From Candidatus Eremiobacteria bacterium (GTDB lineage: Bacteria; Vulcanimicrobiota; Vulcanimicrobiia; Vulcanimicrobiales; Vulcanimicrobiaceae), in assembly GCA_963758295.1 (NCBI GenBank), contig CAVWUU010000001.1:151274-215273 (forward strand): a stretch of 64,000 nucleotides of DNA, given 5' to 3'. The position numbers and the translations under genes are program-made. Shown here piece by piece: positions 2,790 to 48,023 of the stretch; position 1 is the first letter of the stretch, and each line of letters starts with the position of its first letter. The notes under the pieces are model-generated. The model ran no database searches. It saw nothing but the letters and a program-made list of their open reading frames with translations, and was not told the origin of the DNA.

Positions 2790-3469
2790 CCCGCCTGACG
2801 TGGCGGACGGCATATCGCATTATTCCATCGCTCTATCCCGTAGCCGGCATCTTCGACGACGTAACGAATCCAGCCGACCTCCAAGTGATCCTCGAGCTCG
2901 AAGCCGCGACGAACCCGCGCGTCCTCGATGAAGCGGGAGAACTGGCAATGGTGCGGCCCGAGGATCGCATCGCCGGCGTGGGCGCGACGCCGGTAATGGC
3001 GGCGTTTACGCACACGATGGCAAGCCGCTTTTCCGACGGCACCTATGGCGTTTTCTACGCGGCGCACGATGAGCCGACGGCAATAGCGGAGACGGCGTAT
3101 CATCGCGCGCGTTTCTTGCGCAACGCCGGACTGCGCAGCGAGATCGTTCAGATGCGCGTGTATCGCGCAAGCATCGATGGAACCTTCAACGACGTTCGCG
3201 GCAAATCGACGCGCGCCGCGATCTACGCGCCGAATTCCTACGAGGCGTCGCAGCGCTACGCGCGCCCGCTCTATCTGAAGAATGCCGTAGACGGCATCGT
3301 GTATCGCAGTGTTCGCCGGAGGGAGGGCGAGTGCGTTGCCGTTTTTCGGCCGCGTCGTGTGCGGTCATGTAACGTTTTGCGGCACTTAGAGTACCGTTTC
3401 GAAGACTTTGAATTAACCGCCGTGCTCGCCGTCGACGACGTCACGAACGAAAATAGAACGAACCGGTAA
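2783..3469 (+). CDS. RES-domain toxin (NAD+-degrading MbcT/ParT-like family)
   Basis: 228 aa. GTG start overlaps the antitoxin stop (gtggtaa). Layout is typical of RES-domain proteins (TWRTAYRIIPS..., YRSVRRREGECVAVFRP) and it is paired with a DUF2384-type partner. Confidence 0.8.
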   Translation: MVTRLTWRTAYRIIPSLYPVAGIFDDVTNPADLQVILELEAATNPRVLDEAGELAMVRPEDRIAGVGATPVMAAFTHTMASRFSDGTYGVFYAAHDEPTAIAETAYHRARFLRNAGLRSEIVQMRVYRASIDGTFNDVRGKSTRAAIYAPNSYEASQRYARPLYLKNAVDGIVYRSVRRREGECVAVFRPRRVRSCNVLRHLEYRFEDFELTAVLAVDDVTNENRTNR

Positions 3470-3700
3470 CTGGAGTTTCAAACGACGTAGGTCTTTGTGT
3501 GGACCCGCTAGTCTTTTGGTCCCGGTGCGCTAGGAACTACTTTTTGTTGTAACAATTTGTGCGCATGTTAGCGTGCTACGCTTCTGTTGCACGCGTGTCT
3601 TTCTCAGGGTGTTTCGGTTCGAATCACTAGGCTGCGTTTGGGACGCAGCTGTGTTTCGTATTGTTCCGTGACGCTGGAATGTTTCTTCATTGGAGGCCTC

Positions 3701-4801
3701 TTGAAACTACACAAATTGCTCGTCGCGTCGGCCATCGTGGGCAGCATGTCGCTTGCCGCATGCGGTGGCGGCGGCGGGACCGGCGCACCGGGCGCGGTTC
3801 CGACAACGAATCCCTCAAAGCCGACGCAGCAAGCTACGGCAAAGTCGACGCTGACGATGCGCGTCCCGCTGAATTTCTCCGGCGGTAAGAAGGGGCCGTC
3901 GCTGCGAAACTCCGGCGCTATCAGACCGATGTTCGTCGACGGCAACAGCAACGGTACCGTTAACGTCTACTTCGACGGTACGAGCGTTCTGAATTTCTCC
4001 TCGAACGGATCGCCGGGCGCTGGCCCGTCCGGAAGTGCCAATCTCTCAAACGGCGGCTCGTTTACGTGGACGTCGGCCATTAGTCTCGTCGGCAATCAGC
4101 CCGTCGCAACGATCACGGCGAATTACGCGACGGTTCCAGGTTTGCACACGATCGGTGCCGTGCAGCTTGACGGCGCGTGCGTCGGCCCCGATCCGTGCAT
4201 TCCGAATACGGATGGCTACGTGCTTGCCGAAGGGCAGACCACGCAGGTTCTGCAATCGGGCAGCAACGGCAACGCCAATCTCTACATGCGCGGCGTGATG
4301 GAGTCGGCCTACGTTTGCGATCCGGGCTGCACCGGTCAGAATCTCAGCGTGGACGGGCAGGGCTACTACGACCTGTATGTCGTCGTTGCGGACGAAAACG
4401 GAACGGCAATTACGCATCAGTTCGAAGATGATGGAACGACGCCCGTTCCGTTCGACAATGGGAGCTACACGATCGCCGAGCAGAATCCGCAGGGCAACAA
4501 CGGCACCGGCATTCTGTCGATCGACAAACCGGGACCCTTCACGGCGCCTGGAACCGACCGCGCGAGCGGCGGGTATGGCGTCGATATCAAAGTGAAGTGC
4601 GTGCACACCGGTACGACGACGCTTGCGGCGGTACTGGATGCGACCGGCGGAACGCCGGGCGTTCCGGTGGCCGGTTTCACGTACACGGCAAATAACTATC
4701 CGTCGGCCAATATGGTGCTCGGATCGGTTGGTTCCGACATCTATTACGGCAACCAGCTGGCGTTGAATTGCGACGCCTCGGGAACCCTGACCATTCAGTA
4801 A
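3701..4801 (+). CDS. hypothetical lipoprotein
   Basis: TTG start at 3701 lies 4 nt after GGAGG. The N-terminus (M)KLHKLLVASAIVGSMSLAACGGGGG has a signal peptide and lipobox. The mature part is Gly/Asn/Thr-rich. The ORF-track start at 3587 lacks an RBS and would bury the signal peptide. Confidence 0.7.
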   Translation: MKLHKLLVASAIVGSMSLAACGGGGGTGAPGAVPTTNPSKPTQQATAKSTLTMRVPLNFSGGKKGPSLRNSGAIRPMFVDGNSNGTVNVYFDGTSVLNFSSNGSPGAGPSGSANLSNGGSFTWTSAISLVGNQPVATITANYATVPGLHTIGAVQLDGACVGPDPCIPNTDGYVLAEGQTTQVLQSGSNGNANLYMRGVMESAYVCDPGCTGQNLSVDGQGYYDLYVVVADENGTAITHQFEDDGTTPVPFDNGSYTIAEQNPQGNNGTGILSIDKPGPFTAPGTDRASGGYGVDIKVKCVHTGTTTLAAVLDATGGTPGVPVAGFTYTANNYPSANMVLGSVGSDIYYGNQLALNCDASGTLTIQ

Positions 4802-4824
4802 CCTGGGTCAACGGAATCCTCGAT

Positions 4825-4856
4825 AAAGCTCCGGCTCGTAACGAGCCGGAGCTTTT
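4825..4856 (+). terminator. rho-independent terminator after the lipoprotein gene
   Basis: aaagctccggctcg (4825-4838), loop taa, cgagccggagcttt (4842-4855), ending in TTTT. It starts 24 nt after the stop codon. Confidence 0.8.
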
Positions 4857-4916
4857 GCGTGCCATAAGGCCCGCTTGACCCGTGCTGCGCTTCGCGCTAC
4901 GAAAGAAAACGAAGCC

Positions 4917-7900
4917 ATGGGATCGGGAACACTTCGTATCTTTCTTTTTGGCGAACCGCGATTCGAATATGCGAACGAATCGTGGAAATTCAATGCGCCC
5001 CCGAAGACGTTACCTCTGCTCGCCTATCTCTTGCTCCACCGCTCGGCACCGGTACAGCGCGAGCGGCTTGCAACGGCGTTGTGGGCCGATGAAGAGCCCG
5101 CCCGTTCTCAGGCAAACCTGCGGCGGCACATTCACTATTTGAACAAGGCTTTGCCGGTGGGCGACGCGCCGTGGCTACTCACCAACCCAAAGAGCATCGG
5201 CTGGAATACCGCTGCTCCCTATTGGCTCGATGTCGACGCGTTCGAACTTGCAAGCAATGACGCCGCCGTTCGAGGCCGCGCGGTTCGCCTCTACGCCGGC
5301 GATTTATTCGAGCGGTGCGCCGAGGAATGGATGGACTTCGACCGCGAGCGACTGCGCACGCTGCAGCTCTCCAACTTGAAACGGCTTTGCGTTGAAGCAC
5401 GCGAGCGAAATGCCTATCTTGAAGCGCTGCAATATGCCCAGCTGATGCTTGTCGCCGATCCTTGGCGTGAGGATGCCGTTCGGGTCATCATGGAAATTCG
5501 GCTGCTGTTGCACGACCGGGCCGGCGCCATTGAAGAGTACGAATCGTTCGCGCAGCGGCTGCGCGACGAATTAAACACCCAGCCGCTTGAGGAGTCTACT
5601 CGGCTCTACAACGATATCTGTGAAGGGCGTGCGTCAATCGACTCGCACGGCGCGGCGCAGGAACGTGCTATGATCGGACGCCGCAATGAGAGTGCGACGC
5701 TGCTCGACGAATGGCAACGCGCAGCGCGCGGCGAGGGCCGCGTGTTGTTCGTTGGTGGAGAAGCGGGGATCGGCAAGAGCACCTTGCTGGAATCGTTATG
5801 CGAGCGCGTGGTACGGGAAGGCGCGATCGTGTTAAAAGCCTTTGCGGCGGAGCAAGAGAATGCGCCGTACGCGAGTTTTGCTCAGCTAGTGCGCGAAGCG
5901 GCGGCTCAGACCGGCGAAGAGGCGATCGACGTGCGCGCGGGAGCCGCGCTGGCACACCTTGTCCCGGAGCTTTCTCCGCTGCCGGCAAAGGACGACGGTG
6001 CGAGCGAAGAAGGACGCCTGCAGTTGTTTAACGCCGTTGCGAATCTCACGCAAGCCGTTGCCGATCGTGCGCCTCTGTTGATTGCATTCGAAGATGCGCA
6101 TCTTGCCGGCAATGCGACTCTCGAGCTTCTTTCCTACCTCGCGCTTCGCGTACTGGACCGGCGCGTCTTAATCGTGGTGACGTATCGGGAGTTCGAAGTT
6201 GGAAGAGTCCATCCGTTGCGAAAATTGCGCCGGCGTCTCTCATCAACGCGGAGATTGACGTCCGTCGCTCTAAGCGCTCTCGATCGCGATGATGCCGGTG
6301 CCCTTGTTCAAGCCAGAGTTCCGTATTTACTGGAAAGCAAGGTCGTCGACAGCCTGTATCGGCGCAGCGGCGGAAATCCGCTGTTCATGATCGAGATCGT
6401 TCGTGAAGCGGCTGAAGCCGGATTCGATGCTATTCCGGAATCGGTTGCAGAGATCGTTCGCCGCCGGCTGGACCGGCTCGACACAATTCCCCGCGAAGTC
6501 TTAGCGCTGGCGTCGGTTGCGGGAACGTCGTGTTCGTTCGAATTGCTCGGCGCAGTTGCCGGTCTTCCGGAAGCGGAATTGACCGTGACGGTAGATCGCC
6601 TGGTGCAATCGCACTTCCTTCGTTTCAATGCAATGACGAATGAAGTCGCGTTTGTGCACGGAGTCATTCATCAGGCAATTTACGACACGATCGAGGAGCG
6701 GCCCCGGCGAGCCGCACACGCCCGGCTGGCGATCGCGATGCGCGATTTATGGGGCGCCCAGGGAGCCGCTGCGTCAATAGCGCGGCACTTTGAATTGGGC
6801 GACATGCGGCAGGATGCCGGCGCCGCGCATGTCGTTGCAGCGGAGGCGGCGCTTCGCGTGTACGCGTTGGACGAATCCGAAGAGCACGCGCTTCGCGCCT
6901 GTGCAAACGAGCCCGACCGTGAGAGCCGATTTCGTGCCGTTCGCGTGCTCGAAACGATCAGCGGGGTACGGGCCGATGCGGCGCAACAGAAAACCTATGT
7001 TGACGCTTTGCTCGAACTCAGTACGCATCTCCCGGCGACATACCGTGCGGAAGCGTTAATGCGTGCGGCGGACTTTTCCGCCGGCTATCGCGATGGACAG
7101 CACGAGGCCGCGCTCCGCGCCTTGGAAGCCTTTGTAACGGGCGAGCCGGCATTCGCCGCGGACTACCAGCTGCGATTTGGCGAGTATCTTTCACGTAGCG
7201 GTGAGCTTCGCGCATCGTTGGAACCGTTGCGGGCCGCGCTGGAATTCTATAGCAAGCACGGCAAGATCGAAGCGGCAATCCGTACCATCGCCGTGCTCTA
7301 TGCGACGTCAATCTATTTGGGAGAACCGGTAGAGTTCTTCGAGCGCGAGCTGGAAAGCGTACGGGAGCGAGTTTCAAGCGCCGCCGACGCAAGGATTCGC
7401 GGTCGGCTCGCGCAATTGCGCAGCGGCGCATTATTGGATAAAGATCCCGGCGCGGCGTATGCCGCCGCCCTCGAAGTCCTTGCGTTTGCAGACGAGACCG
7501 ACGATCTCGCCCTTTGCACGGCCGGACATCGTGCGGCCGCCGCCTCCTCGATCAGACAAATGGAGTTGGGAAAGGCCCTCCGTCACCTAAGGGAATGCGA
7601 AGAACTGGTGACAACGAACGGGCGCCCACGCGATCTGGCTCACGTACGATCGTGGCAAGTTCTGTACGAAAACCGCTGCGGCGGGTTCGACCGCGCCATA
7701 GCGCTCGGCGAAGAAGGCATCGCGATTGCGGACCGCGCGCGAGCGCTTGAATTGCGGACGATCATTGAGAGCAATATCGCAATAAGCCTGAAATGGTCGC
7801 ACCGGCTAGATCGCGCCGAGGCAGCGATCTCCAGCGCGATTTACGCGAACGAAACACTCTCGCGGCGCAGTTCTTCCATGCTGAGCGTGTTGGCGGAAAT

Positions 7901-8357
7901 TCGCATCGCTAAAGGGTTTCTCGACGAAGGAATCGCGTTGCTGGAAGAGTCCGTTCGCATTCGATTGCCCCAAAGCGATGCGCTGGGCGTTGCCTCCGTG
8001 CACGAGCCGCTCGTGCTCGGTCTTGCGTACGTCGCGGCCGGCCGCACGAAAGACGCGAAGCGATGTGCCGGCCGGATTCTTAGCGCAATGGACCGGTACG
8101 AGGCCTATTACTTTCATCCGCAAGCTTATCTATGGGCTGCAAGCCGGTTCCTTAGCTTCTTCGGATATGCCGAAGCGGAAGAGTTCCGTGCCGCCGCCAG
8201 GCGCCGTTATAGCGCCATTCTTGCCGGGATCGACGATGCAGATGCGCAACGGTCGTTCCGCGACTTCGTCTTCAACAGGCTTATCGTTGAGGACGTCCGC
8301 GTCGAAGATCCGCATTGCGTGTGGTTCTCTCCCGGTGATTTGCGGAGCCCTGCATAA
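4917..8357 (+). CDS. SARP/AfsR-like regulator: winged-helix plus BTAD domain, P-loop (STAND-type) ATPase, TPR-like C-terminal repeats
   Basis: The N-terminus LRIFLFGEPRF...LLAYLLLH...RERLATALWADEE...NLRRHIHYLNKAL resembles an OmpR-type winged helix and is followed by BTAD-like helices. Walker A is GGEAGIGKSTL. A helical-repeat tail of more than 600 aa follows. Start chosen at ATG 4917 (MGSGTLRIF). Confidence 0.8.
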   Translation: MGSGTLRIFLFGEPRFEYANESWKFNAPPKTLPLLAYLLLHRSAPVQRERLATALWADEEPARSQANLRRHIHYLNKALPVGDAPWLLTNPKSIGWNTAAPYWLDVDAFELASNDAAVRGRAVRLYAGDLFERCAEEWMDFDRERLRTLQLSNLKRLCVEARERNAYLEALQYAQLMLVADPWREDAVRVIMEIRLLLHDRAGAIEEYESFAQRLRDELNTQPLEESTRLYNDICEGRASIDSHGAAQERAMIGRRNESATLLDEWQRAARGEGRVLFVGGEAGIGKSTLLESLCERVVREGAIVLKAFAAEQENAPYASFAQLVREAAAQTGEEAIDVRAGAALAHLVPELSPLPAKDDGASEEGRLQLFNAVANLTQAVADRAPLLIAFEDAHLAGNATLELLSYLALRVLDRRVLIVVTYREFEVGRVHPLRKLRRRLSSTRRLTSVALSALDRDDAGALVQARVPYLLESKVVDSLYRRSGGNPLFMIEIVREAAEAGFDAIPESVAEIVRRRLDRLDTIPREVLALASVAGTSCSFELLGAVAGLPEAELTVTVDRLVQSHFLRFNAMTNEVAFVHGVIHQAIYDTIEERPRRAAHARLAIAMRDLWGAQGAAASIARHFELGDMRQDAGAAHVVAAEAALRVYALDESEEHALRACANEPDRESRFRAVRVLETISGVRADAAQQKTYVDALLELSTHLPATYRAEALMRAADFSAGYRDGQHEAALRALEAFVTGEPAFAADYQLRFGEYLSRSGELRASLEPLRAALEFYSKHGKIEAAIRTIAVLYATSIYLGEPVEFFERELESVRERVSSAADARIRGRLAQLRSGALLDKDPGAAYAAALEVLAFADETDDLALCTAGHRAAAASSIRQMELGKALRHLRECEELVTTNGRPRDLAHVRSWQVLYENRCGGFDRAIALGEEGIAIADRARALELRTIIESNIAISLKWSHRLDRAEAAISSAIYANETLSRRSSSMLSVLAEIRIAKGFLDEGIALLEESVRIRLPQSDALGVASVHEPLVLGLAYVAAGRTKDAKRCAGRILSAMDRYEAYYFHPQAYLWAASRFLSFFGYAEAEEFRAAARRRYSAILAGIDDADAQRSFRDFVFNRLIVEDVRVEDPHCVWFSPGDLRSPA

Positions 8358-8730
8358 AAACGACCTTCCACCTTCGCCGTTGAAGCGCAGCGGCGAATAG
8401 CAGATACCCCGTATGGACTGGAAGGGCGCCCGGTTCTTGCAATGCGTGCCCGCGCATGCTCCACACGGCATTCACGATCGCGCACGACCGGTTGATAAAA
8501 CGAATCGCAGCAACGGTGATGCGAAGGTCGCTTTTTGCGAGGGTAGTTGCGAACGTTTCCCGGTAAAAAGCAGCAATTGCATCGCGTCCTTGAAGCGTCA
8601 CACCGCTGACGTCGATCACCTCGGCGTCAGCGGTGTAGAGCTCGCACAGGGCTTCGGCATCGTGCATATTCCACGCTCGCTCGAAGAACGTCGTGAGTTC
8701 TTCCACTCGAGCGCGAAGCGCGCCGGTCAT
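8281..8730 (-). CDS. NTF2-like / SnoaL-SgcJ-EcaC family protein
   Basis: N-terminus ELTTFFERAWNMHDAEALCELYTADAEVIDVSGVTLQGRDAIAAFY fits the pattern of the SgcJ/EcaC (DUF4440-like) NTF2 fold. Its ATG overlaps the upstream cupredoxin stop (ATGA). Its 3' end overlaps the convergent regulator gene by 77 nt. Confidence 0.65.
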   Translation of the reverse strand: MTGALRARVEELTTFFERAWNMHDAEALCELYTADAEVIDVSGVTLQGRDAIAAFYRETFATTLAKSDLRITVAAIRFINRSCAIVNAVWSMRGHALQEPGALPVHTGYLLFAAALQRRRWKVVFMQGSANHRERTTRNADLRRGRPQR

Positions 8731-9686
8731 TGAACCGTAACCGATCCCATCATGCCCTCGGCGCCATCATGGAAGAGGCAGTCGTATGCATACGTTCCGG
8801 CTTTCGTGAACGTCAAGCTGAAGCTCCGCCCGGGCATCATCGGTCCGGAGTTCACCATCGTCGAACCGTCGTAACTGGTCGGTCCCGACGGCGGAGAGAA
8901 CGGACTCATCGGCGGCAACTGTTGTCCAGCGACGGGGAACGTCACGGTGTGCGGGAGATTGCTGTCCAAGTTCGTCCAGGTAACCGTCGTTCCGACCGCC
9001 ACTTTCACGTCGGTGTCGTCGAGGGAGGGTCCGGTGAGGAAACGCACGACGCTGGATGGTCCAAGCGGCGGTAAGCCGAGGCCGCTCGAGATGCCGGCCG
9101 CAATATGCGGCCCACCGGCGGTGTACGGGAAGAGCCCTACGGCGCTAGTCGCGTTCGCAAGGTCCGCTTGCAGATTGGACTGTCCGGTAGCATCCAGCTG
9201 CGCTTGGGACTGCGGATAAGCAGTTCCGGCAGGCTGAACGACAACCGTTCCCACCATTTCACCGTGGATGAGGCAGTAATACGTGTACGTCCCCGCCTTG
9301 GTGAACGTCAGGGTGTAGGTCTTGCCGCCGGCGGCGAAGCCGGAGTTCGTATAAACCGTGCCGTCGTAACTGCTGCCGCCCGCGGGCTGCTGGTTCGACG
9401 GGTCGGACGGCGGCGGCGGTGACGCTTGCGGGCCGAGAAAAGTGACCGTGTGCGGTTCGGCAGCCGGAAATTTCCACGTGACGGAATCGCCCGCGTCGAT
9501 CGTGATGGACTTTGGATAGTATTCGAGCCCCTGGAGCGCTTCGGTTTGGGTCGATCCGCCGGCTTGCACGTACCACATTTGCGCGGCGGGTTTGGAGCTG
9601 GGGGTAGGCGTTGGCGATACGGTACCGCCGCCGCAGCCCGAAAGGGCCAGGCCGGCGACGGACGCGAGAATTAGCAGACGTTTCAT
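8727..9686 (-). CDS. two-domain cupredoxin (plastocyanin/azurin-like blue copper) lipoprotein
   Basis: Signal peptide plus lipobox (LALSGCGGG). There are two repeats, each ending in a type-1 copper ligand pattern: YYCLIHGEM and YDCLFHDGAEGM (Cys-x2-His-x(n)-Met). Confidence 0.8.
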   Translation of the reverse strand: MKRLLILASVAGLALSGCGGGTVSPTPTPSSKPAAQMWYVQAGGSTQTEALQGLEYYPKSITIDAGDSVTWKFPAAEPHTVTFLGPQASPPPPSDPSNQQPAGGSSYDGTVYTNSGFAAGGKTYTLTFTKAGTYTYYCLIHGEMVGTVVVQPAGTAYPQSQAQLDATGQSNLQADLANATSAVGLFPYTAGGPHIAAGISSGLGLPPLGPSSVVRFLTGPSLDDTDVKVAVGTTVTWTNLDSNLPHTVTFPVAGQQLPPMSPFSPPSGPTSYDGSTMVNSGPMMPGRSFSLTFTKAGTYAYDCLFHDGAEGMMGSVTVQ

Positions 9687-11486: not shown

Positions 11487-14400
11487 ATGCGTACCCTGTC
11501 GGAAGTTTTCGCACCAGGATCACCGACGCTGCCGGAGGGCCTCCGAACGCTCGTCGTTTCGCCCGACCGAGAGTTGGAACCTGGAATGACGGTGCGCGCA
11601 TCATTCACGTTTCGCAATCAAGGCGGCGCTCCGGCATCCGGCGTGCGCGTGCGTTTCAACATACCCGATGGGCTCGTCTACCTCGTTGGGACGGGCCAGC
11701 TTGACGGCGCCGATCTCGACGACGAACAGGGTAATTCGCCGTTGCTGGCTCGCGGCGGCGCGCAGATCGGCGACGTGGCGCCCGGCGAAGAACGTCGCAT
11801 CGAAATCTCCTACAGCGTAGCGGGAGCAATCGAGAACGGCACAACGATCGAGCTGCAGGCGGCAGTCGCCTCGTTCGAACTTCCACCCGTCGGTTCGAAT
11901 ATCGTCCGCTTGATCGCCCGGAGCCGCCCGCAGTTGCAAAATGCCATCACTGGAATTGCGATTGAGGGCCGTCAGAACGCGGCGCCCGGCGCGGAAGCGC
12001 AGATCACTTTGCGTTTGCATAACGCCGGCGAATCGAGCGCCCACGACGTGGTCGTGGTGGCACCGATTCCCGAACACACGCGGTACGTTCTAAACTCGGC
12101 GCGTGTAAACGGCCGTGAGATCGAACGCGATCTCGGCGTCCCGTTCGACCGCGTATATGCACCGGTCGTCGCGCAAACGCTTGCGGCCAGCGCAAGCGCA
12201 ACGTTGGTCTATCGGGTGCGGATCGACAACCCGCTGCGAAACGGCACGCCGATCGTGGCACATGCGCAGATCGCTTCGCAAGAAACGCCCGCTTTCGCGC
12301 TCGAGGCCGCGTCGCTGAACGTCGAATCAGCGCCCGACTTGAGCGACGAGCGCACGACCTTCACCATCGAGCCGTCGCACGACGTGCGTCCCGGAAGCCG
12401 CGTGTCGATGGTGTTTTCCGCGTATAACGCCGGCTCGGCCGCCGCGGAAAACGTCACGGTGACCCTTGAGCTGCCCGATGCCCTAACGCCGGTGCGCGGT
12501 TCGGTGCAAGTCGATGGACGCCCGGTTCGCGAACGCAAAAAAGACCAGCTTTCCCTTGATTTGGGCCGTCTCGACGCAGACGAACGCGTTGAGCTGCGTT
12601 GCGAAGCGACGGTCGTTTCTCCGCTGGCCGATGCATCAGCATTGCCCGTATCGGCATTGCTTGTGTGGCAGCCGTCGGAAAATGACTCGCAGCGGCGCTT
12701 CGACCGCAGCATCGCTGTGCGCTCGGAACCGGCGCTGCCCGTTCGCCGAAATACCATTTCACGCGCGCACGGCGAGATCGTGAAGCCGGGCGAAGAAGTG
12801 GAAGCGGCAATCGTCCTTTCGAACGACGGCAGTGCCGCTGCTACGGACGTCGTCTTACACTTGCGTCCCGATCCCGGGCTCGAAGACGTGCGGCTTTTCG
12901 AGAAGAACGCTCGCATCACGCTCGATGCGGACGCCGCAGAAATCGGCTCGCTCGAGCCGTACTCGCAGCGGCGTTTCACGATGCGCGCCCGCGTGCGCGT
13001 TCCGTATGCCGATCGCAGCGAACTGCGGACCGGAGCGAGCGTGCACAGCCGCGAGCTGGGCGAGACGCCGCTGGGCGAAACGACATGGCGTGTGGATTCG
13101 CATCCGGCGTTTTCGACGCAGAGTTCGCACGTGCAGCTCGAAAGCGAAGAAGTGCTGCGACCGAATCAACTCGCCGACGTTGCCGTTCGCGTGGTGAATG
13201 CCGGCAGCGACGTCGCACACAACGTACGCGTCCGTTTGTACGTATCCCCCGAAGCGCGCTTGGAAACGGTCGACGGTGCCACGCGAGAAAAATCGAAGCT
13301 CGTGTTCGGTGAGATCGCGCCCGGCGCGCGCGCCGAAGCGCGTCTGGGAGTGCGCCTTTTGCGCAGTCTTGCAAAAGAGTACCCGGTAACGATCGATGCC
13401 GTTCTAACGGCCGACGCGATGCTTCCGGTTCCGCTCGAACGTCTCACGATCGTGACGACTGCCGAGCCGGACTTCTCCGTTGGTACGTTGCGGAGCGAAC
13501 CGGTCGAGGTCGCCGACGCCGGTGAAACGATCGAGTGGACGTTGCACGTGCGCAACGGGGGCGACGGACCGGCGCGCCGCGTGCAGATCGCCGTTGCGCA
13601 GCCGGAATCGCTCATTTACGTGCCCAACTCTACGACCGTTAACGACGTCCCCATTCGCGACACCGGCGCGTTGACGCCGCTCGCGAGCGACCGCGGAATC
13701 GTTTTGAACGACGTCGATCCCAGCGTTGAGGCGACCATTCGGTGGCGCGACGTGATTCACAACGGCCTTGGTGCCGGCGAAGCGATCTCCCGCACCGCGC
13801 GCGTCTCGTACGACGGCGATCGCGAAGACGCACTCGTTTCAAATGAATTAAAAGTTCGCGCGACGCCCGTTTTCGCCAACGCGATTCCGGGTTTACCGTT
13901 CGGGCTCGACGGCATGATCGGCCCGTCGCTTGGCGGACAACGCGCATTGACCGAAGACCGGTTTTTGGAATTGCCGCCCGCGACGCCGGTGAACGGCGAA
14001 GGTGCAGTCCATCGCGAGTGGTTGCAGCAGCAAGATTTGCCGGTGCTCGAATCGGCGAGTAATGGCCGGCACGATACCGTTTCGCTTCACGACGAAGCGA
14101 TTGTTGAAGGCGCGCTCGTCCACGAAGGAGCGGGCGTTGCGATTTCCTTCACGAGCGAGCGGCTCACGCGCACGTTGCGGTACTTGGAGGAAGCGCGCTT
14201 TAACGGGTTGATCACGCATCTCTTTGCGATCCGGGCATTCTTTCCGGAGACGCTCGGCGACACGCATGCGGGGTCGGTTACCGCGATCCGCGAAATGCTG
14301 CGCGACGAGTTCGACCGGCTCTTCATTAAACTGCGCTTGCCGAACTACGTCATCGCCGCTCGCGATATTGAAACGCCGTCGCTGCGAGCGACCGTGGAAC

Positions 14401-14744
14401 GCTTCGTTCACGACGCTTCAACGGCGCGCGGGATCCCTGCGGATGTTCCGGGCGCCGCGGTGATCTTGCGCGGCACACTCGATGCCGGCGGGTTTGGCGA
14501 AATAGCCGATACGCTTTCCGAGGCGGAGCTAGCGTCGGCGCTGCCGTGGACGCTGCTCGCCCGTGCCTTGCCCGATGCGACGCCGCAGCTGGCGCATTAT
14601 CGGAAGATGCTCGTCGATCGATTGGACGGCCTCGTGGATGCGGAGTCCGCTGAGTTCGTGGATTCGCTGCAGCGCCGGCGCGATACCGCGCTCGACGCGG
14701 CGTTGGACGTCCTTCGCACGTCGCTCTATGCAAACGCCAGGTAA
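11487..14744 (+). CDS. large DUF11/CARDB-like repeat protein, paralog 1 (no signal peptide)
   Basis: 1085 aa. About six ~130-aa modules each carry an N-x-G-x3-A-x2-V-x-V signature, for example FRNQGGAPASGVRVRF, LHNAGESSAHDVVVVA, YNAGSAAAENVTVTL, LSNDGSAAATDVVLHL, VVNAGSDVAHNVRVRL and VRNGGDGPARRVQIAV. A ~250-aa helical C-terminal domain follows. The N-terminus is hydrophilic. Confidence 0.8.
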   Translation: MRTLSEVFAPGSPTLPEGLRTLVVSPDRELEPGMTVRASFTFRNQGGAPASGVRVRFNIPDGLVYLVGTGQLDGADLDDEQGNSPLLARGGAQIGDVAPGEERRIEISYSVAGAIENGTTIELQAAVASFELPPVGSNIVRLIARSRPQLQNAITGIAIEGRQNAAPGAEAQITLRLHNAGESSAHDVVVVAPIPEHTRYVLNSARVNGREIERDLGVPFDRVYAPVVAQTLAASASATLVYRVRIDNPLRNGTPIVAHAQIASQETPAFALEAASLNVESAPDLSDERTTFTIEPSHDVRPGSRVSMVFSAYNAGSAAAENVTVTLELPDALTPVRGSVQVDGRPVRERKKDQLSLDLGRLDADERVELRCEATVVSPLADASALPVSALLVWQPSENDSQRRFDRSIAVRSEPALPVRRNTISRAHGEIVKPGEEVEAAIVLSNDGSAAATDVVLHLRPDPGLEDVRLFEKNARITLDADAAEIGSLEPYSQRRFTMRARVRVPYADRSELRTGASVHSRELGETPLGETTWRVDSHPAFSTQSSHVQLESEEVLRPNQLADVAVRVVNAGSDVAHNVRVRLYVSPEARLETVDGATREKSKLVFGEIAPGARAEARLGVRLLRSLAKEYPVTIDAVLTADAMLPVPLERLTIVTTAEPDFSVGTLRSEPVEVADAGETIEWTLHVRNGGDGPARRVQIAVAQPESLIYVPNSTTVNDVPIRDTGALTPLASDRGIVLNDVDPSVEATIRWRDVIHNGLGAGEAISRTARVSYDGDREDALVSNELKVRATPVFANAIPGLPFGLDGMIGPSLGGQRALTEDRFLELPPATPVNGEGAVHREWLQQQDLPVLESASNGRHDTVSLHDEAIVEGALVHEGAGVAISFTSERLTRTLRYLEEARFNGLITHLFAIRAFFPETLGDTHAGSVTAIREMLRDEFDRLFIKLRLPNYVIAARDIETPSLRATVERFVHDASTARGIPADVPGAAVILRGTLDAGGFGEIADTLSEAELASALPWTLLARALPDATPQLAHYRKMLVDRLDGLVDAESAEFVDSLQRRRDTALDAALDVLRTSLYANAR

Positions 14745-14750
14745 CGCCTC

Positions 14751-15158
14751 TTGAACACAATCGTTATCATCCTGGTCGTGATCTTGCTCGCCGGTATCGC
14801 GGTAGGCGCGTATGCGTTCTTAGCGCCGCGCCGTGCCGAGCGCGACGACGAAGGCGCCAAAGGGACGCGCGAGCCCGCGCAGGCGGCGACCGGCTGGAGC
14901 GGTGAGACGGAAAACGAATTTGCGGGCCTATCGGAAGCCGCGCGTTGCGATCTCGTGTTCGCCGTTGCGACCTTGGAAGACGAACGTTCGCAGCAACTGC
15001 TCGTGCACGCGCTCGACGATCCCGCCGAAGCCGTCGCCCTTGCCGCGGCCCACGCGCTCGTTTCAAGCGGCCGCAGCAGCATCGTTGAATCGTTTCTCGC
15101 GCGTTCGCCCGGGCCTCGCGCCGAGCGCATCAGCGATACACTCGCGCTTCTTGACTGA
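14751..15158 (+). CDS. small single-pass membrane protein with HEAT-like C-terminal region, partner 1
   Basis: TTG start 7 nt after the paralog-1 stop. N-terminal TM helix NTIVIILVVILLAGIAVGAYAFL. The C-terminus LLVHALDDPAEAVALAAAHALVSSG resembles a HEAT/PBS-lyase-type repeat. Confidence 0.6.
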   Translation: MNTIVIILVVILLAGIAVGAYAFLAPRRAERDDEGAKGTREPAQAATGWSGETENEFAGLSEAARCDLVFAVATLEDERSQQLLVHALDDPAEAVALAAAHALVSSGRSSIVESFLARSPGPRAERISDTLALLD

Positions 15159-15211
15159 TTACAAACAGCGGGTCCCTAGGTTGCGCCTGGTCGGAGAGGG
15201 AAAGTAGCGGC

Positions 15212-18200
15212 GTGGCTTCCTCGCTGACCGGCATTTTTGCCCCGGGCTCTCCCGCTTTGCCGGAGACCCTTCGGACATTGATTCTGGAACCGGCGCGCAG
15301 CGTTGCGCCCGGTGATAACATTCGAGTCAGCTTTTCGTTTTCGAATCTCGGCGGTGCGCCGGCGACGGGCGTGCGCGTGCGCTTCGCGCAACCGCAAGGC
15401 GTCGTCCACGTTGGCGATGCCGACGTCGTGGACGACACTGCGCTCGCTGAGGGTTCCTTTGCGGATGCGAGCGGTGCGGCCATCGGCGATTTGGAACCCA
15501 ACGCGCAGCGCCGCCTCACGTGTACGTTCCGCGTCAACGATACGATCGAAGACGCCACGGAGCTGCAGTTTCAAGCCGCGCTCGCAACCGATCAGACGCC
15601 GCTTGTCGGCTCGAACGTGGCCCACGTCGTCGTTCGCAGCCGCCCCGAACTCCAGGGCAGCGGAACGCTCGCAACGATTTCGTCGCCGTCGGTCCCGAAG
15701 CCGGGCGATGCCATCACGGTTCGCGCGACTATTGTCAACTCGGGCTCGTCGAGCGCGCACGACGTAACTCTCGTCTTGCCGGCGCCGGAAAACACCAGTT
15801 ACGTATCGCGCAGCGCGCGCATCGACGGGCGCGTCGTCAAGAGCTCCAGCGGCGAGCCGTTCGATTACGATAGCGCGACAATCATCAGCGAACGCTTGAT
15901 GCCGGGCCAAGCCGTGCTCGTCGAGTATCAAGCGACGATCGATTCACCGCTGGCCGACGGCACGCGGATCAAAGCATCGGGAACCGTCGGCTCGCGTGAA
16001 CTTTCGGAATTCGCTATTTCATCGGCGGAGGTCGTCGTCACTTCGCCCGTCGACTTCGAAGGCGAAGAGAGCGGTTTGACGATTCTGTCGGACGACGTCG
16101 TAACGCCGGGGATGCGCGTCCCGATGGTCCTGCGCGCGATGAACACCGGGACCGGCATTGCGCAACGGCTGCAGTTTTCGTTCGATCTTCCCCAAGGATT
16201 GATTTACGCTCCAGGATCCGCGCACGTCGACGGCCAGCCCGTGAGCGACGACTCTATCCCGGGCCTGGTTTTCTCACTCGGCTCGCTCGCGGCGGGACGT
16301 ATGGTCGAAGCCGGTATCGCGGCGACGGTCGCGGTTCCCGCAAGCGGCGGCGCGACAGCGCTCCCCGTGCAGGGCACGCTGCGTTGGCGAAACGGTGAGC
16401 GGCGTTTCACGCGGCGCCTTTCCGTGCGTGTTGCACCGCGGTTCAGCCGCGCCCGCAATTTCGTCGAAGCGGATCGCGGCGTCGCGCAAGCGCGCGACGA
16501 AGTGAAGTTCACGGTTCACGTTTATAACGACGGTACCGCGCCCGAACAAGACGTGCGTTTGCGTTTGATTCCGGGTTTGCACCTCGGCGATTTGCGCATC
16601 GGGGAAGACTCCGAGGAATCCCAGGCGTACGATCAACCGCTCGCGCTCGGCCTTGTGGAACCGCACAACCAGCGAACGTTCACCGTTTACGCGCGCGTCG
16701 GCTCCCGTGTGCCGGATCGTTCGAACGTTGCGCTCGGCGTCATTCTGGAACACGCCGAAGGCGCCGTCGATCTGGGAACGGCTACGGTCGTCGTGCGCTC
16801 GCGGCCGGCCATCGAAAGCGTCGTCTGGGAACTCGCGTCGCACGAACCGCTCCGGCCCAATCGCACTATCGACGTGATCGTTCGCGTCGCGAACGGAGGC
16901 ACGGACGTTCTGCGCGACGCGCGCCTTTCGCTGACCCTTCCTCCGGAACTTGCAGTGGAACGCGCCGTCGACGCGCAGCGAGATCGTGAAGGCGTAGCGT
17001 TCCAAGACGTTCCCGCCGAATCAACGCATGAAGCGCGCATGACGTTACGGCTGCTTCGCGCCGTTGCGAGCACTCGCGTGCTTACGGTCGATGCGTGGCT
17101 GCACGGCAAAGGCATCAGCCCCGTTCAGCTCTCACCGCTCGAAGTGCCGGCATACGCGGAACCGCAATTCGCACAAAGCTCGCAAGTCTTGGCGATTCCA
17201 GCCGAACACGTGAACGCCGGTGAGCGGCTGTTCTATGAAATTCGCTTGCGCAACGACGGCGACGGCCCGGCAGAGCGTTTGGTGATACGCGTCGTGCCGA
17301 CGAATTTAGCGGTATACGTGCCGGCATCGACCACGCTCAACGGCATGCCGGTGAACGACGATTCGGGCGTTTCACAGTTGTGGTCGCAACGCGGACTCGT
17401 CCTAGCCGATGTCAATCCGAATGTCGAACTGCGCATCCGCTGGGAAACGATCGTAATGTCGCCGCTCGCGGCCGATACGCCGATCGATACGCGAGCCGTC
17501 TTCGAGTGGGATCAAGGCAAGACCCTCGCGCTGACCGCACCCACGGTTCGCGTTCAAGCGCAGCCTTCGCTCAGCGAATCGGCCGAAGGAACGCCCATTT
17601 CGATTGCGCGCGTCTTTTCCGCCGAGGGGCCCGTGTACGAAGCGGCGCCGCTGCCGCCCGAACCCGAACCGGTTCCCGAACCGCCGCAGCCGCCGGTGGA
17701 AGCCGCTCCGCCGCGCATGATTGCCGAGGTTATAGCGGCTGAAACGGTCGAGTTTCCCTCGGTGCTTCCGATGATCGGTGCTCCCGAACCGCCGCAAGCG
17801 GCGCAGGCCGTGCCCGTTCTCTACGCCGATTTCTCGCCGGACCGTCTCGACAACACGATTCGCATGATCGAACGCAGCAATGTCGGCGGACTTGTGCAGC
17901 ATCTTTTTGCAATGCGCATGCTGCTGTTCCCCGAACATGCGATCAATGCGTCGCCGCAGCTCAGCGGGTCGTTTGCGAACGCTAACCGGCTCTTACGCGC
18001 GCCGCTGGAAAAATTGTTCGTCCGTCTAGGTACGCCGCGCTTGCAAGTCAGCGGCAAGGACATCGAAGATCGTGAAAGCCGCGACGGGCTGCGCAACCTG
18101 ATCGACGATCTGTCACTTGCGCCGACGGCTTCGCCGCAGCCGCCCCCGCCGGGCGTCATTCGAATCGAAGGCGCGGTCGAACTTGACGTCGTGCAGTCGC

Positions 18201-18475
18201 TCGCGCTCTCGCTCGAATCGTTACCGCTCGGTGCCGTGGCGCCTTGGCTCATCAACGCGCAATTGCTCGGCACTTCAATTGTCTACGATCGAACGAAATC
18301 CGAAACGCTCGAAGCGTATCGGAGCGAGCTTTTGAACGTCTTTACGGTGCTGGCGGAATTACCGATCATGGAGTTTCACCGCGTGCTCACGACGAGCGTA
18401 AATCGCACGCTCGATGAGTCGCTCGCCGCGGTGCTCGAAGCACTGCGCGGCGCCGCGCACATTGCTGTCGAGTAA
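15212..18475 (+). CDS. large DUF11/CARDB-like repeat protein, paralog 2 (no signal peptide)
   Basis: 1087 aa with a GTG start after GGAGAGGGAAAG. It shares the N-terminal motif IFAPGSPALPETLRTL with paralog 1 (VFAPGSPTLPEGLRTL), the same six-module layout, a Pro-rich linker (PLPPEPEPVPEPPQPPVEAAPP) and the conserved helical C-terminal domain (GGLVQHLFAMRMLLFPE versus NGLITHLFAIRAFFPE). Confidence 0.8.
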   Translation: MASSLTGIFAPGSPALPETLRTLILEPARSVAPGDNIRVSFSFSNLGGAPATGVRVRFAQPQGVVHVGDADVVDDTALAEGSFADASGAAIGDLEPNAQRRLTCTFRVNDTIEDATELQFQAALATDQTPLVGSNVAHVVVRSRPELQGSGTLATISSPSVPKPGDAITVRATIVNSGSSSAHDVTLVLPAPENTSYVSRSARIDGRVVKSSSGEPFDYDSATIISERLMPGQAVLVEYQATIDSPLADGTRIKASGTVGSRELSEFAISSAEVVVTSPVDFEGEESGLTILSDDVVTPGMRVPMVLRAMNTGTGIAQRLQFSFDLPQGLIYAPGSAHVDGQPVSDDSIPGLVFSLGSLAAGRMVEAGIAATVAVPASGGATALPVQGTLRWRNGERRFTRRLSVRVAPRFSRARNFVEADRGVAQARDEVKFTVHVYNDGTAPEQDVRLRLIPGLHLGDLRIGEDSEESQAYDQPLALGLVEPHNQRTFTVYARVGSRVPDRSNVALGVILEHAEGAVDLGTATVVVRSRPAIESVVWELASHEPLRPNRTIDVIVRVANGGTDVLRDARLSLTLPPELAVERAVDAQRDREGVAFQDVPAESTHEARMTLRLLRAVASTRVLTVDAWLHGKGISPVQLSPLEVPAYAEPQFAQSSQVLAIPAEHVNAGERLFYEIRLRNDGDGPAERLVIRVVPTNLAVYVPASTTLNGMPVNDDSGVSQLWSQRGLVLADVNPNVELRIRWETIVMSPLAADTPIDTRAVFEWDQGKTLALTAPTVRVQAQPSLSESAEGTPISIARVFSAEGPVYEAAPLPPEPEPVPEPPQPPVEAAPPRMIAEVIAAETVEFPSVLPMIGAPEPPQAAQAVPVLYADFSPDRLDNTIRMIERSNVGGLVQHLFAMRMLLFPEHAINASPQLSGSFANANRLLRAPLEKLFVRLGTPRLQVSGKDIEDRESRDGLRNLIDDLSLAPTASPQPPPPGVIRIEGAVELDVVQSLALSLESLPLGAVAPWLINAQLLGTSIVYDRTKSETLEAYRSELLNVFTVLAELPIMEFHRVLTTSVNRTLDESLAAVLEALRGAAHIAVE

Positions 18476-18788
18476 TCCCGCACTCGGAATTTTCGCCGCA
18501 CTTTTTCTGCTCGGCGCGTTATTCTTTGCCGCCGGCACCTGGCTTGCTCGCCGCGAAAGAGTCGCGCCCGTTTCCTTGCCGGTGGCGCCGATCACCTGGA
18601 CGCAGGCCGTTGCCAATAGCGACGAAACTTTCGCGCCTCAATTGCGTCTGGATATGATCGAACGCCTCGCCATGGTCGGGCAAGAGTGGTGTGTCGAGGT
18701 GCTGCAGCGCGCGCGTATCGAAGAAACCGATCCCGCGATCGCCGACGCGATCGAACGCGCTCTCATCGTGATCGGCGCGCGCCGTTAG
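18462..18788 (+). CDS. small single-pass membrane protein with helical C-terminal region, partner 2
   Basis: Same position relative to paralog 2 as 14751-15158 has to paralog 1. TM helix ALGIFAALFLLGALFFAAGTWL, then the helical tail VEVLQRARIEETDPAIADAIERALIVIG. The start is uncertain: TTG 18462 places the TM helix at the N-terminus as in partner 1, and the alternative is ATG 18414. Confidence 0.5.
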   Translation: MLSSNPALGIFAALFLLGALFFAAGTWLARRERVAPVSLPVAPITWTQAVANSDETFAPQLRLDMIERLAMVGQEWCVEVLQRARIEETDPAIADAIERALIVIGARR

Positions 18789-32430: not shown

Positions 32431-35400
32431 AACTCAAGAAGATCAAAGCTTTCGGCTTTAAGACTTTTGCCGAACCGACTACGCTCGATTTTTCGGGTGG
32501 TATCACCGCGATCGTCGGGCCGAACGGTTCGGGCAAATCGAATATGGTCGATGCCTTTCGCTGGGTGCTGGGCGAGACGTCCAGCAAAAGCTTGCGCTCG
32601 GGCAAATTAGAAGACGTTATTTTCGCCGGCAACGATAAACGTAAGCCGCTCGGTCTCGCGGAAGTCTCCATGACTTTCGACAATGCCGATCGCAAACTCG
32701 CGACGGACTACAGCGAAGTCGAGATCACGCGCCGCACGTACCGCGCCGGCGAAAGTGAGTACTTCATCAACCGCAACCAGGTTCGTTTGCGCGACATCGT
32801 CGAGCTGCTTGATGGGCACCGGGCTTGGGCCGGGCTCGTACTCGATCGTCTCCCAGGGACAGATCGACTCGATCCTTACGAGCAAACCCACCGAACGCCG
32901 CGCCCTCTTCGAAGAAACGGCCGGCATCAACAAGTTCCTGGCGCGCAAGAACGAGTCGATGCGCCGCCTGGAGCAAACCGAGCAAAACGCGATCCGCATC
33001 AACGATTTGATCGCGGAGCTCGAGCGCCGCATTCCCGAGCTGGAAACGCAAGTGCGCCGGGCCAAGCGGTATCGCAAGGTGAGCGCCCGCGTTCGCGATC
33101 TCGAGATTCTGTCGTACATGCGCGCGAGCGAGTCGCGCCGTATGGAGCGCGAAACGCTGCGCGCGGAACTCGAGAAGAACGAAGAGCTGCGCACGGGCGC
33201 GTCCGCGAAAGCGGCACAGCTCGGTGCCAACCTTGCGGAACTGCGCACGCGCGCCTACCAGCAAGAACTGCAGTTGGAAGAGCTGCGCTCGGAAACGCAA
33301 GGGAAGCGGGCCGAATTAGCGCGCCTCGAAGCGGACTACGCCGCTGCGCTCGCGCGCCGCGAAACGCTCGAACGGCAGTCGACGCAGACCTCCGAAGACG
33401 CGGCGCGGGTCGAAGCCGAACGCGAAGAGCTCGCCGCAACGATCGCGTCGCTCGAAGAGCAGCTGGCGCCCCTCGCCGGCGAACTCGAAGGCGCGCGCGA
33501 GAAAGAACTTGCGGCGCAGACGGCGCTTGCGCAAGCGCGCAAACAGCTCGACGAGATCTTCACGCAATTGCGCGAAGTTGAATCGTCGGCCGCGGAACTT
33601 GCCGCCCGGAAAGCCGAGCGCCGCGTTCAGGGCGAAAACCTGCGCGCCGAAGCCGAACGTCTCGACCAAGAAGCGCACGCCGCGCGCGAGCGCGTCGCCC
33701 AAGCGGAAATCGCTACCGGAACCGCAACGCAGAATTATGCCCAGCGCGAATCGCAGTTGGCGTCGCTAGAAGAACAGCAGATGGAAGCGCGTACGCGTGC
33801 CGAGCAGGCCGAACGCGCCGTTACGCAAGCGCAGGAAGATTTGGCCCGCGCCGTTCGTCAGCATCGCGAACATACCGGCGAAGTAAAAGCCGCCGAATCG
33901 CGCCTGCATACGATCGAAGAACTCGAAGCATCTCTCGAAGGGCACGTACCCGGCACGAGGGCGGTCGTGGAAGCGGTGCAGCGCGGCGAACTGCGTGGCA
34001 TCGAAGGCATCGTTTCTAACCTCATCACCACCGACGAACGGTATGCCCGCGCCATGGACGTTGCCTTCGGCGCGCGCCTTTCGAACATCGTCACTTCGCG
34101 CTCGGAAGACGCCGAACGCGCGATCGAATTTTTGAACCGCAGCGAACAGGGTCGCGCGACGTTCTTACCGCTCGACACGCTCGCGAACCGCGAAGCGCGT
34201 CAAATGACGGCCGAATTGCATCGCACGCACGGCGTGATTGGTTACGCGCACTCGCTCATCCGCACCGAGCCGAAGTACGAGGGCGTCGTTCGGTTCCTCG
34301 TCGGCAACGTGCTCGTAGTCGATACGTTGCAGACCGGCATTCATCTCGTGCGCGAGCGGGGGTTCCGCGATACGATTGTTACGCTTACGGGCGAGCAGAT
34401 CGCCGGCGGCGGAGCAATCACGGGCGGACGCTTCCGTCGCGAGAAATCGATCCTTTCGCGTCGCGTGCAAGCTGAAACGCTGCGCGAAGCGCTGGCTGAA
34501 ATGCGCGCGAACCTCGATCGCTTCGAGCGCGAGGCGCAGCAGGCAACGCAACGCTCGGAGCAGGCGACGTCCGAGCGCAGCGCCGCACGCGATGCGCTAG
34601 CGAAACTCGAGCTTCAAATGGCCGAAGTTCGCACGGAAATGGCCGCGGTTTCGGCTGAGCTCGAACGCATGCAAGGCGTAATGCTAACCGCCCACGCGCA
34701 AGTCGAAGAGCTCGCGGCGCGCGCGGTCGAGGCTCGCGAGCGCGAACACACGCTCGAAGGCGACGAACCCGACCAGGTTCACAGTCAAGAAGAACGCCGG
34801 CGTCTCGAAGCGGAGCTCGCAAAGGCGCGCGAAGAAATCGCGCACGCTGAGGCATCACAGGCAGAAGTCGCGCGCCGCGCGGCGGATCTGCGCGAACGGA
34901 CGGCTGCGCTTACGGCGCAACGCGACGCTGCTACCGGCCGTCTCGGCATGCTGGATCAAAACAGCGAACGCGCGCAACACGCGCGCGAGCAGATGCTTGC
35001 GGAGATCGGGCGGCTCGTGGAGCAGACACGAACGGCTCACGCGCATATCGAAGGCTTGCGCGCGGGCGTGAGCGATCTCGATGCGAAACTCGACGTCGCC
35101 CGCCGCCAACGCGAAGCGATGGCCAACGATCAGCTCGAGATCGAATCGTCGCTTCGCAGCGCCGAGAACGACGAACGCGAAGCGGCGGCAGGCGGCGAAC
35201 GCCACCGTACGCGTCTTGCGGAAATCGAAGCCGAGCTTGGCATGCTGGTTTCGCAGTTCGCGCAGAATCCCGCTACCGACGAAGAACTGCGCGACGTCGA
35301 AGAACGGTACAAAGAAGAGTCGGACCAGGTAGCCGACGAGTTGCCGCGTCTGCGTGAAGAACTCGCGCGTCTCTCGGCTAACGTCAACCTCAATGCCGAA

Positions 35401-46094: not shown

Positions 46095-46099
46095 AAGAT

Positions 46100-48012: not shown

Positions 48013-48023
48013 GAGAAGCTCCT

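Follow-up and report, generated by a model that had tools for sequence, protein, structure and literature searches.

Where does a protein act that is built from a domain array typical of the cell surface and carries no signal for leaving the cell? Tandem CLIPPER/DUF11 arrays, made of immunoglobulin-like (Ig) domains, are treated as markers of cell-surface adhesins. The question is raised by a locus in contig CAVWUU010000001.1, from a soil bacterium of the phylum Eremiobacterota (Vulcanimicrobiota). The stretch analyzed, here called the window, is 64,000 nucleotides (nt; 64 kb) long; between its positions 11487 and 18788 the forward strand holds two large genes, Big1 and Big2, each followed at once by a gene for a small predicted membrane protein, Small1 and Small2. 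A preliminary description of this DNA, made from the letters alone, had noted the arrangement. We find the big-small pairing to be real, a statement strongly supported by comparison of genome sequences. As to what the pair does, we tentatively favor, at slightly less than even confidence, the reading that the large protein is an Ig rod in the cytoplasm, held at the inner face of the membrane by its C-terminal domain, with the small protein as anchor.

The open reading frame (ORF) of Big1 (11487..14744, + strand) starts with ATG and encodes 1085 amino acids (aa), comprising six Ig modules, a disordered linker and a C-terminal domain (the C-domain). Big2 (15212..18475, +) starts with GTG and encodes a 1087-aa paralog built in the same way; GGAGAGGGAAAG precedes this GTG, and AAGGAGG is found upstream of the orthologous start in related loci. 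Both starts are set by upstream stops and by the conserved N-terminus; many public gene calls place that of Big1 33 residues later. Both ORFs lie where they had been described, and their paralogy is plain (37% identity over 809 aa, E = 3e-151). A module of two genes, one for a large and one for a small protein, thus stands here in tandem duplicate.

Six Ig-like modules and a DUF11/CARDB content had been proposed for the large proteins, and both hold. The N-x-G..A..V signature occurs six times in Big1 (N44, N179, N314, N446, N571 and N690), and the full-length AlphaFold (AF2) model of Big1, made with 79 sequences, contains six beta-sandwich blocks whose predicted local distance difference test score (pLDDT) is mostly 80-95 (mean of the whole model, 84). 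The modules span residues 1-145, 146-282, 283-412, 413-538, 539-659 and 660-792 and align together; leaving aside the N-terminal motif of module 1, module alignment, signatures and model place them at 11559..13862 (+). DUF11 (PF01345), for which the Pfam gathering cut-off is 24.6 bits, scores 113.2 bits in Big1 (five stretches) and 89.5 bits in Big2 (four stretches), TIGR01451 scores 97 and 78.6 bits (cut-off 24), and NPCBM_assoc and CARDB are above cut-off in both proteins. Hidden Markov model (HMM) scores thus assign the Ig modules to the CLIPPER/DUF11 family. Sequence searches of PDB with the Ig region, or with only module 2, yielded no useful match and missed the CLIPPER crystal structure 9IFR.

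Small1 (14751..15158, +) has a TTG start 6 nt past the Big1 stop and encodes a single-pass protein of 135 aa, with its transmembrane segment at about residues 4-25 and a HEAT-like region at residues ~62-116. Small2 (18462..18788, +), a single-pass membrane protein with a HEAT-like tail, has a TTG start that overlaps the Big2 stop by 14 nt. The longest ORF for Small2 opens at ATG 18414; the position of TTG 18462 is conserved in 33 orthologs, and from the sequence it is most likely the true start. The single transmembrane segments and TTG starts of the preliminary description stand, as does its size range of ~110-135 aa for Small1; Small2 is shorter, at 108 aa. The gap between Big1 and Small1 has a median of 2 nt and is at most 30 nt in 70/71 loci, and that between Big2 and Small2 has a median of -14 nt in the 33 orthologs. 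Translational coupling would fit such tight or overlapping spacing.

Both small proteins consist of a very short N-tail, a hydrophobic segment (median length 24 residues in Small1 orthologs and 23 in Small2 orthologs), a basic patch (APRR or RRER), a variable linker and a helical tail. The 15 aa behind the transmembrane segment hold on average 3.7 Lys and Arg in Small1, versus 0.35 in the N-tail (a pattern seen in 70/71 orthologs); for Small2 the figures are 3.4 versus 0.9 (32/33 orthologs). The positive-inside rule is thereby obeyed with the N-terminus out and the C-terminus in (N-out/C-in), so that the HEAT-like domain should face the cytoplasm, and both proteins are predicted to be single-pass N-out/C-in membrane anchors. 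The HEAT-like tail of the preliminary description is only partly borne out by searches. Small1 has about two PBS-type HEAT-like repeats with the motif 'DDP..V..AAA.AL...G', and its residues 68-116 match designed alphaRep chains in PDB at 5.5e-11 (phmmer), but Pfam HEAT_2 reaches 20.6 bits on the small proteins, under its cut-off of 27.7, and the match to NblB is weak. Compared pairwise, Small1 and Small2 are barely similar (E = 0.083), whereas profiles of 71 Small1 and 33 Small2 orthologs align from the transmembrane segment through the HEAT-like tail (hhalign probability 93.8%, E = 1.8e-7), which shows the two to be homologous.

The pairing was evaluated in a scan that took one genome per species and found relatives in 181 stretches, of which the 80 best were used for locus comparison. 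In these 80 the gene order is an aminotransferase gene (-), then Big1 and Small1 with or without Big2 and Small2 (+), then mrdA (encoding PBP2), mreD and mreC (-). Presence and absence were counted in the 60 loci that cover the whole aminotransferase-to-mrdA interval. Small1 stands behind Big1 in all of them (60/60), and the third subfamily described below has the pairing as well. Big2 and Small2 come and go together: both are present in 23/60 and both absent in 32/60, making 55/60 concordant. The five exceptions are one locus with Big2 alone (L021) and four species in which an intact stand-alone gene for the C-domain (196-216 aa) fills the second position (L020:11334-12549, L028:11649-12621, L029:6454-7044 and L036:11637-12607). 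A Small2-like ORF with transmembrane segment and HEAT-like tail lies directly downstream on the same strand in L020, L028 and L036; in L029 the sole Small2-like match is on the opposite strand. In the window, the stop codons of Small2 (+) and the convergent mrdA/PBP2 gene (-) overlap by 4 nt at 18785-18788, so that two convergent transcription units meet without spacer or terminator.

Two apparent fusions of a large to a small protein were rejected. P0345 is a frameshifted read-through with Arg-rich out-of-frame stretches, and in L004, where Small1 runs in frame into Big2, there is a 1-nt insertion before the stop codon.

All clearly labeled family matches are from Eremiobacterota, and the two-gene module appears to be confined to that phylum. 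The 120 best protein matches to Big1 are 63-79% identical and, wherever named, come from Eremiobacterota (Vulcanimicrobiota); Big1 orthologs in the phylum are 57-79% identical. Some 'MAG TPA_asm' records carry other labels (Acidoferrum, Verrucomicrobiia, Acidiferrales, Babeliales, Limnocylindria), among them L001, L008, L013, L014, L023 and L056. These share the Eremiobacterota synteny at 58-75% identity, and their labels therefore look unreliable.

Spurious ORFs are common in GC-rich DNA, Small1 and Small2 both start with TTG, and many public calls begin Big1 further downstream. One might accordingly suspect an annotation artefact, with small ORFs arising by chance, or large ORFs that are decaying adhesins stripped of former signal peptides. 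This we regard as having almost no chance of being correct. Across orthologs (71 of Small1, 33 of Small2) whose amino-acid identity is 30-69%, the transmembrane segment, charge pattern and HEAT-like motifs are kept; intact large ORFs occur in 181 species-level genomes and 439 protein clusters; and no segment is better conserved than the N-terminus. Conservation of this kind effectively refutes the artefact.

A third subfamily repeats the design at another locus. Its large proteins are 22-25% identical to Big1 over the full length and share the build, namely no signal peptide, Ig repeats, tail motif, linker and C-domain, with a small protein bearing a transmembrane segment and a HEAT-like tail encoded next (HEAT_2 at E = 0.011). 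The start of the small gene overlaps the stop of the large one by 4-7 nt in L082, L083, L087 and L088, and lies 7 nt past it in the more distant L085. Except in L085, the neighborhood (4/5 loci) is rsgA-rpsT-priA-GGDEF-Crp (-), Big3 and Small3, and further on clpX-clpP-tig; the pairs at L082:10001-13311, L083:10001-13296, L087:6001-8975 and L088:6001-9311 are divergent from the Crp-family regulator and GGDEF genes. Named members belong to Candidatus Elarobacter and 'Eremiobacteraeota'; a 'Candidatus Binatia' label suggested by the neighboring genes was unreliable and was set aside. In L088 a 926-aa Gly-rich protein is encoded between the Crp gene and the large gene (3116-5896, -); it has no Pfam match and is unrelated to the family by BLASTP.

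Conservation along the large protein is greatest at its N-terminus. The N-terminal motif, residues 1-24 of Big1 (MRTLSEVFAPGSPTLPEGLRTLVV; 11487..11558, +), is the best-conserved stretch of the protein, with 94% identity among orthologs and 62% to Big2; domain 1 is 87% conserved among orthologs. Within the motif, FAPG..LPE.LRTL is invariant among 12 aligned sequences (F8, A9, P10, G11, L15, P16, E17, L19, R20, T21 and L22). The conservation reported in the preliminary description is thus real, but the motif is not an element set apart. It aligns with the start of every Ig module, that is, with the 'xPxL/F' linker and A-strand that open modules 2-6, and hence is not a separate targeting peptide. 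Its pLDDT in the model is about 70.

Behind module 6 stands a conserved tail motif (TPVFANAIPGLPFGLDGMIG; 13863..13922, +), disordered in the monomer model, with the consensus PvFANaIPGLPFGlDGM across 62 orthologs and with counterparts in Big2 and the third subfamily. It resembles the N-terminal motif (VFANAIPGLPFGL versus N-terminal VFAPGSPTLPEGL in Big1), and 'VFAxxxPxLPxGL' peptides at both rod ends might allow head-to-tail assembly. The tail motif leads into a Pro-rich, variable, low-complexity linker that ends at residue 879 (13923..14123, +), delimited by pLDDT and conservation. Residues 796-879, comprising the tail peptide and the ~70 residues behind it, have pLDDT below 50 and are predicted to be disordered, and residues 837-885 are 20% identical among orthologs. 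Linkers of relatives are Pro-rich too and vary in length up to about 300 aa (e.g. P0157).

Beyond the linker comes the C-domain. The preliminary description saw here a conserved helical domain of ~250 aa; the domain is indeed conserved, but measures ~205 aa, is mixed alpha/beta, and lies behind ~85 disordered residues. By the AF2 model it occupies residues 880-1085 of Big1 (14124..14741, +), and residues 871-1087 of Big2 (17822..18472, +) align with it and are matched by the same HMM. The Big1 C-domain model is confident (pLDDT 95.1, predicted template modeling score 0.91), with ten helices and two strands. The domain has zero matches in Pfam, NCBIfam, PADLOC and PHROGs. The best hit of its sequence in PDB (E = 0.003) is an unconvincing short aldolase stretch, and Foldseek with the model gave best E-values of 1.4 in PDB and 0.69 in BFVD, meaning no fold relative in either. 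It may therefore be described as a new ~205-residue domain family that has a confident predicted fold and lacks a solved relative.

A search with the C-terminal 297 aa of Big2 returned only 18 proteins, mostly fragments, probably because Pro-rich words swamped the candidate list. It was replaced by an exhaustive profile search of 1.84 billion representatives, which yielded 248 clusters. These are proteins of 800-1300 aa or C-terminal fragments, and the match is C-terminal in every listed protein whose length allows a judgment. Toward the third subfamily, too, conservation is highest in the C-domain (27%). Taken with this conservation profile, the stand-alone C-domain loci point to the C-domain, usually with an anchor, as the core of the system.

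A core domain of this sort could be active in itself. The C-domain might be catalytic or ligand-binding, the small protein coupling it to the membrane and the rod being an accessory lost from some lineages, in what would be a membrane-associated enzyme or signaling pair. Nine His, Arg, Lys, Asp, Glu and Tyr residues are near-invariant in 87 non-redundant C-domain sequences (H911, R944, K948, R950, D960, E962, R967, Y1038 and D1070), as an active domain would have it, and the intact stand-alone genes in four species, three with the Small2-like ORF directly downstream, fit the idea as well. So do the regulatory neighbors of the third subfamily, that is, the divergent Crp-family and GGDEF genes and, behind one relative, a response regulator and histidine kinase. 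These neighbors are, however, absent from the mrdA-side locus, the C-domain resembles no enzyme or sensor family by sequence or fold among the families and structures searched, and an accessory rod would hardly be expected to hold the most conserved parts of the protein, as this one does among orthologs with its N-terminal motif and domain 1. We judge an enzyme or signaling pair improbable.

The preferred reading, a tethered cytoplasmic rod, depends first on location. The absence of a signal peptide, lipobox, sortase motif or adjacent secretion gene, as reported earlier, was upheld throughout. An N-terminal hydrophobic h-region or transmembrane segment was found in 0/223 family members of at least 800 aa, third subfamily included. 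The nearest in-frame stops upstream of the large ORFs are 18 codons off in one and 19 in the other, and none of the codons between is a start, which makes a hidden signal peptide impossible. Big1 and Big2 contain no LPXTG, RTX (GGxGxD) or twin-arginine motif, and Pfam and NCBIfam find no adhesive tip or sorting domain in the large proteins. No secretion gene (ABC/MFP/TolC or other) is present among the scanned ORFs of at least 250 aa in the window, and no transporter or secretion gene is called adjoining the module in either conserved neighborhood.

The composition of the large proteins is Glu/Arg-rich and cytoplasm-like. A crude composition score, trained in-sample on 20 proteins of the window (13/14 cytoplasmic ones positive, 6/6 exported ones negative), groups Big1 (+0.038), the two C-domains and the soluble domains of Small1 and Small2 with the cytoplasmic set. 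The preliminary description had left open whether the large proteins are intracellular or exported; taken together, partner topology, the family-wide lack of signals and composition lean toward the inside of the cell.

One protein, P0124, joins a lipoprotein signal to a C-domain and would place the latter outside; it was rejected as an assembly chimera. In the metagenome contig L081 (7270-8529; ENA k141_922976) the final ~840 bp of a Big2 locus follow an unrelated lipoprotein/Fn3_assoc gene, with the joint inside the GC-rich sequence of the Pro-rich linker, giving the false 'signal peptide + C-domain'. The 99% identity of L081 to L012 is confined to the part beyond that linker, and Big2 is full-length in L012, from which the chimera was recognized.

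The mechanism that we propose would run as follows. The genes of each pair would be expressed together, the small protein being made from the same message right after the large one. It would insert N-out/C-in, so that its HEAT-like domain of two repeats lies on the cytoplasmic side of the inner membrane; there this domain would dock the C-domain of the rod, and perhaps the disordered but conserved tail peptide that precedes the C-domain as well. Held in this way by its C-terminal end, the rod would hang from the inner membrane face by the flexible Pro-rich linker, and its six domains, taken at typical Ig-domain size, would extend roughly 25 nm. This would fix the distance between the membrane and the N-terminal motif with domain 1, the whole serving as spacer or scaffold for some partner. 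The analysis shows the architecture, the lack of export signals, the predicted orientation of the partner, and the joint inheritance and close gene spacing of the pair; physical binding, cytoplasmic location and scaffold role are all what we infer.

A more specific version, possible although we consider it on the doubtful side, is a lineage-specific intracellular scaffold. An Ig-domain rod of a kind otherwise known only on cell surfaces would work in the cytoplasm, attached to the inner membrane by the new C-domain and the small HEAT-like anchor, and would serve, in the manner of filamin or hydin, as a spacer from the membrane to some internal structure. Filamin is a membrane-cytoskeleton linker built as a rod of Ig domains. 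Candidates for the internal structure are the elongation machinery encoded next door (mrdA-mreD-mreC), the nucleoid and intracytoplasmic membranes. Big1 loci all lie beside mrdA-mreD-mreC, but those of the third subfamily do not, so that a link to cell-wall elongation is only a lead.

Foldseek with the full-length Big1 model gives some encouragement to the scaffold idea. The best matches are chains of the ciliary central pair (E = 3e-26 to 1e-20; 7som_D at 3e-26, then 9ijj and 7sqc), which outrank complement and alpha-2-macroglobulin MG domains, PrgB and integrin alpha. We take these top matches to be eukaryotic cytoplasmic Ig/ASH arrays. The likeness lies in long arrays of Ig-like sandwiches used as intracellular spacers or scaffolds; at about 10-12% identity and TM-scores (template modeling) of 0.1-0.2, the resemblance is an analogy of form and not evidence of homology.

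Several points weigh against a tethered cytoplasmic rod. Docking of the large protein by the small one is a proposal, something we infer in its entirety. The Foldseek rank of a six-repeat query is inflated by repeat number. The predicted topology has the positive-inside rule as its one basis, and in the small proteins of the third subfamily, which have few charges behind the transmembrane segment, that rule speaks more weakly. The composition score is rough, as said, and is 0.0 for the Ig part of Big2. A Pro-rich spacer near the anchoring end resembles wall- or periplasm-spanning segments. Big1 and Big2 have one Cys each (P about 0.014 versus the window background). Characterized CARDB and NEW3 arrays are cell-surface proteins, and characterized CLIPPER/DUF11 arrays are extracytoplasmic surface stalks (PMC12617251).

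Several of these same observations favor a rival in which the large protein is a fibrillar adhesin or envelope spacer exported non-classically, by a type I-like or other non-Sec route, and the small protein is a cytoplasmic docking or export adaptor, or else the anchor of the C-terminal end. Besides the precedent of the CLIPPER/DUF11 stalks and the Pro-rich spacer between rod and terminal domain, the large proteins are acidic (isoelectric point 5.0) and Cys-poor, in the manner of type I substrates. The phylum is, moreover, diderm with lipopolysaccharide (PMC9758169), and glycosyltransferases resembling those for lipopolysaccharide core are encoded in the window.

Yet RTX repeats number zero, the C-terminus is a conserved and confidently folded 205-aa domain where a loose secretion signal would be expected, and the scanned window ORFs and the calls beside the module include no secretion gene. 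The soluble domain of the partner is predicted to be cytoplasmic, and the Glu/Arg-rich composition is that of cytoplasmic proteins. Cys depletion, tried as a sign of export, was rejected; it is modest in Big1 and Big2 and reversed in the third subfamily (1.1% Cys). Finally, the isopeptide Lys that stabilizes surface stalks (PMC12617251) is missing. With triad positions from that paper and the HMM consensus, the module alignment has an A-strand Lys in no module of Big1, and modules 1 and 2 have no Lys at all, so the Lys-Asn isopeptide is absent from Big1. We hold non-classical export to be unlikely, though the most serious competitor to an intracellular rod.

Were the tethered cytoplasmic rod correct, a signal-less family with a cytoplasm-facing partner would show that the CLIPPER/DUF11 fold is used inside bacterial cells, and would caution against annotating surface proteins from domain content alone. 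Eremiobacterota are a globally abundant and barely cultured soil phylum. The module is present in every examined Eremiobacterota locus and in 181 species-level genomes, making it a candidate signature trait of the phylum. Vulcanimicrobium alpinum is a cultured member (PMC9758169), and its culture makes localization and knock-out work feasible, provided that strain carries the module.

Some other genes of the window may be recorded here. Upstream of the module are a gene for a 1160-aa SARP/AfsR-like STAND regulator with Trans_reg_C, BTAD and AAA_16 domains (4875-8357, +) and one for a lipoprotein-like protein (MKRLLILASVAGLALSGC...) with two plastocyanin/azurin-type copper-binding domains (8727-9686, -). 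Downstream, 23198-27128 (-) encodes an 899-aa protein whose sole match is zinc-dependent phospholipase C, followed by a 423-aa ORF that has no Pfam match. An SMC gene (32683-35994, +) coincides with unusually high AT skew (about 0.2) at 32-36 kb. Between pfkB and aspS runs a set of GT2 and GT9 (heptosyltransferase-like) genes (44877-50784, +), which looks like a lipopolysaccharide-core cluster, fitting a diderm envelope.

How does the module compare with known systems? The large proteins share with CLIPPER/DUF11 proteins (PMC12617251, 2025) the tandem CnaA-like Ig domains, the N-x-G...A signature and a long acidic rod. They differ from the CLIPPER/DUF11 stalks in having no signal peptide, sorting signal, adhesive tip domain or Lys-Asn isopeptide (the last being found in many CLIPPER/DUF11 members, not all), and in carrying the unnamed C-domain and a membrane partner whose soluble part is predicted to be cytoplasmic. 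The fibrillar-adhesin architecture of signal peptide, sorting or anchoring signal and tip domain is accordingly not that of Big1 and Big2.

Giant type I adhesins of the LapA/SiiE type are large, acidic and Cys-poor, with Ig-like repeats and no N-terminal Sec signal. Big1 and Big2 are like them in being acidic and Cys-poor, in their Ig-like repeats and in lacking a Sec signal; they are unlike them in having no RTX repeats, a folded C-domain (pLDDT 95), no nearby transporter genes and a length of ~1085 aa. Those features of type I substrates that sequence and model could reveal are not seen in the pair. Small1, for its part, resembles PBS-lyase-type HEAT proteins (HEAT_2, alphaRep, NblB/CpcE-like) in its helix-turn-helix repeat motif, with HEAT_2 staying under the Pfam cut-off, and departs from them with its ~two repeats, its N-terminal transmembrane anchor and the absence of any phycobiliprotein link.

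PADLOC (anti-phage defense) and PHROGs (phage) give no match for the four proteins or the C-domain, and our literature search found no paper on the Big/Small family. The statement in the preliminary description that no characterized system corresponds to this architecture is therefore sustained by Pfam, NCBIfam, PDB, BFVD, PADLOC, PHROGs and the literature: in comparisons of sequence, fold and publications, the architecture matches none. The family is best filed among the CLIPPER/DUF11 repeat proteins, as a variant distinguished by its missing export signal, its new C-domain and its predicted cytoplasm-facing partner.

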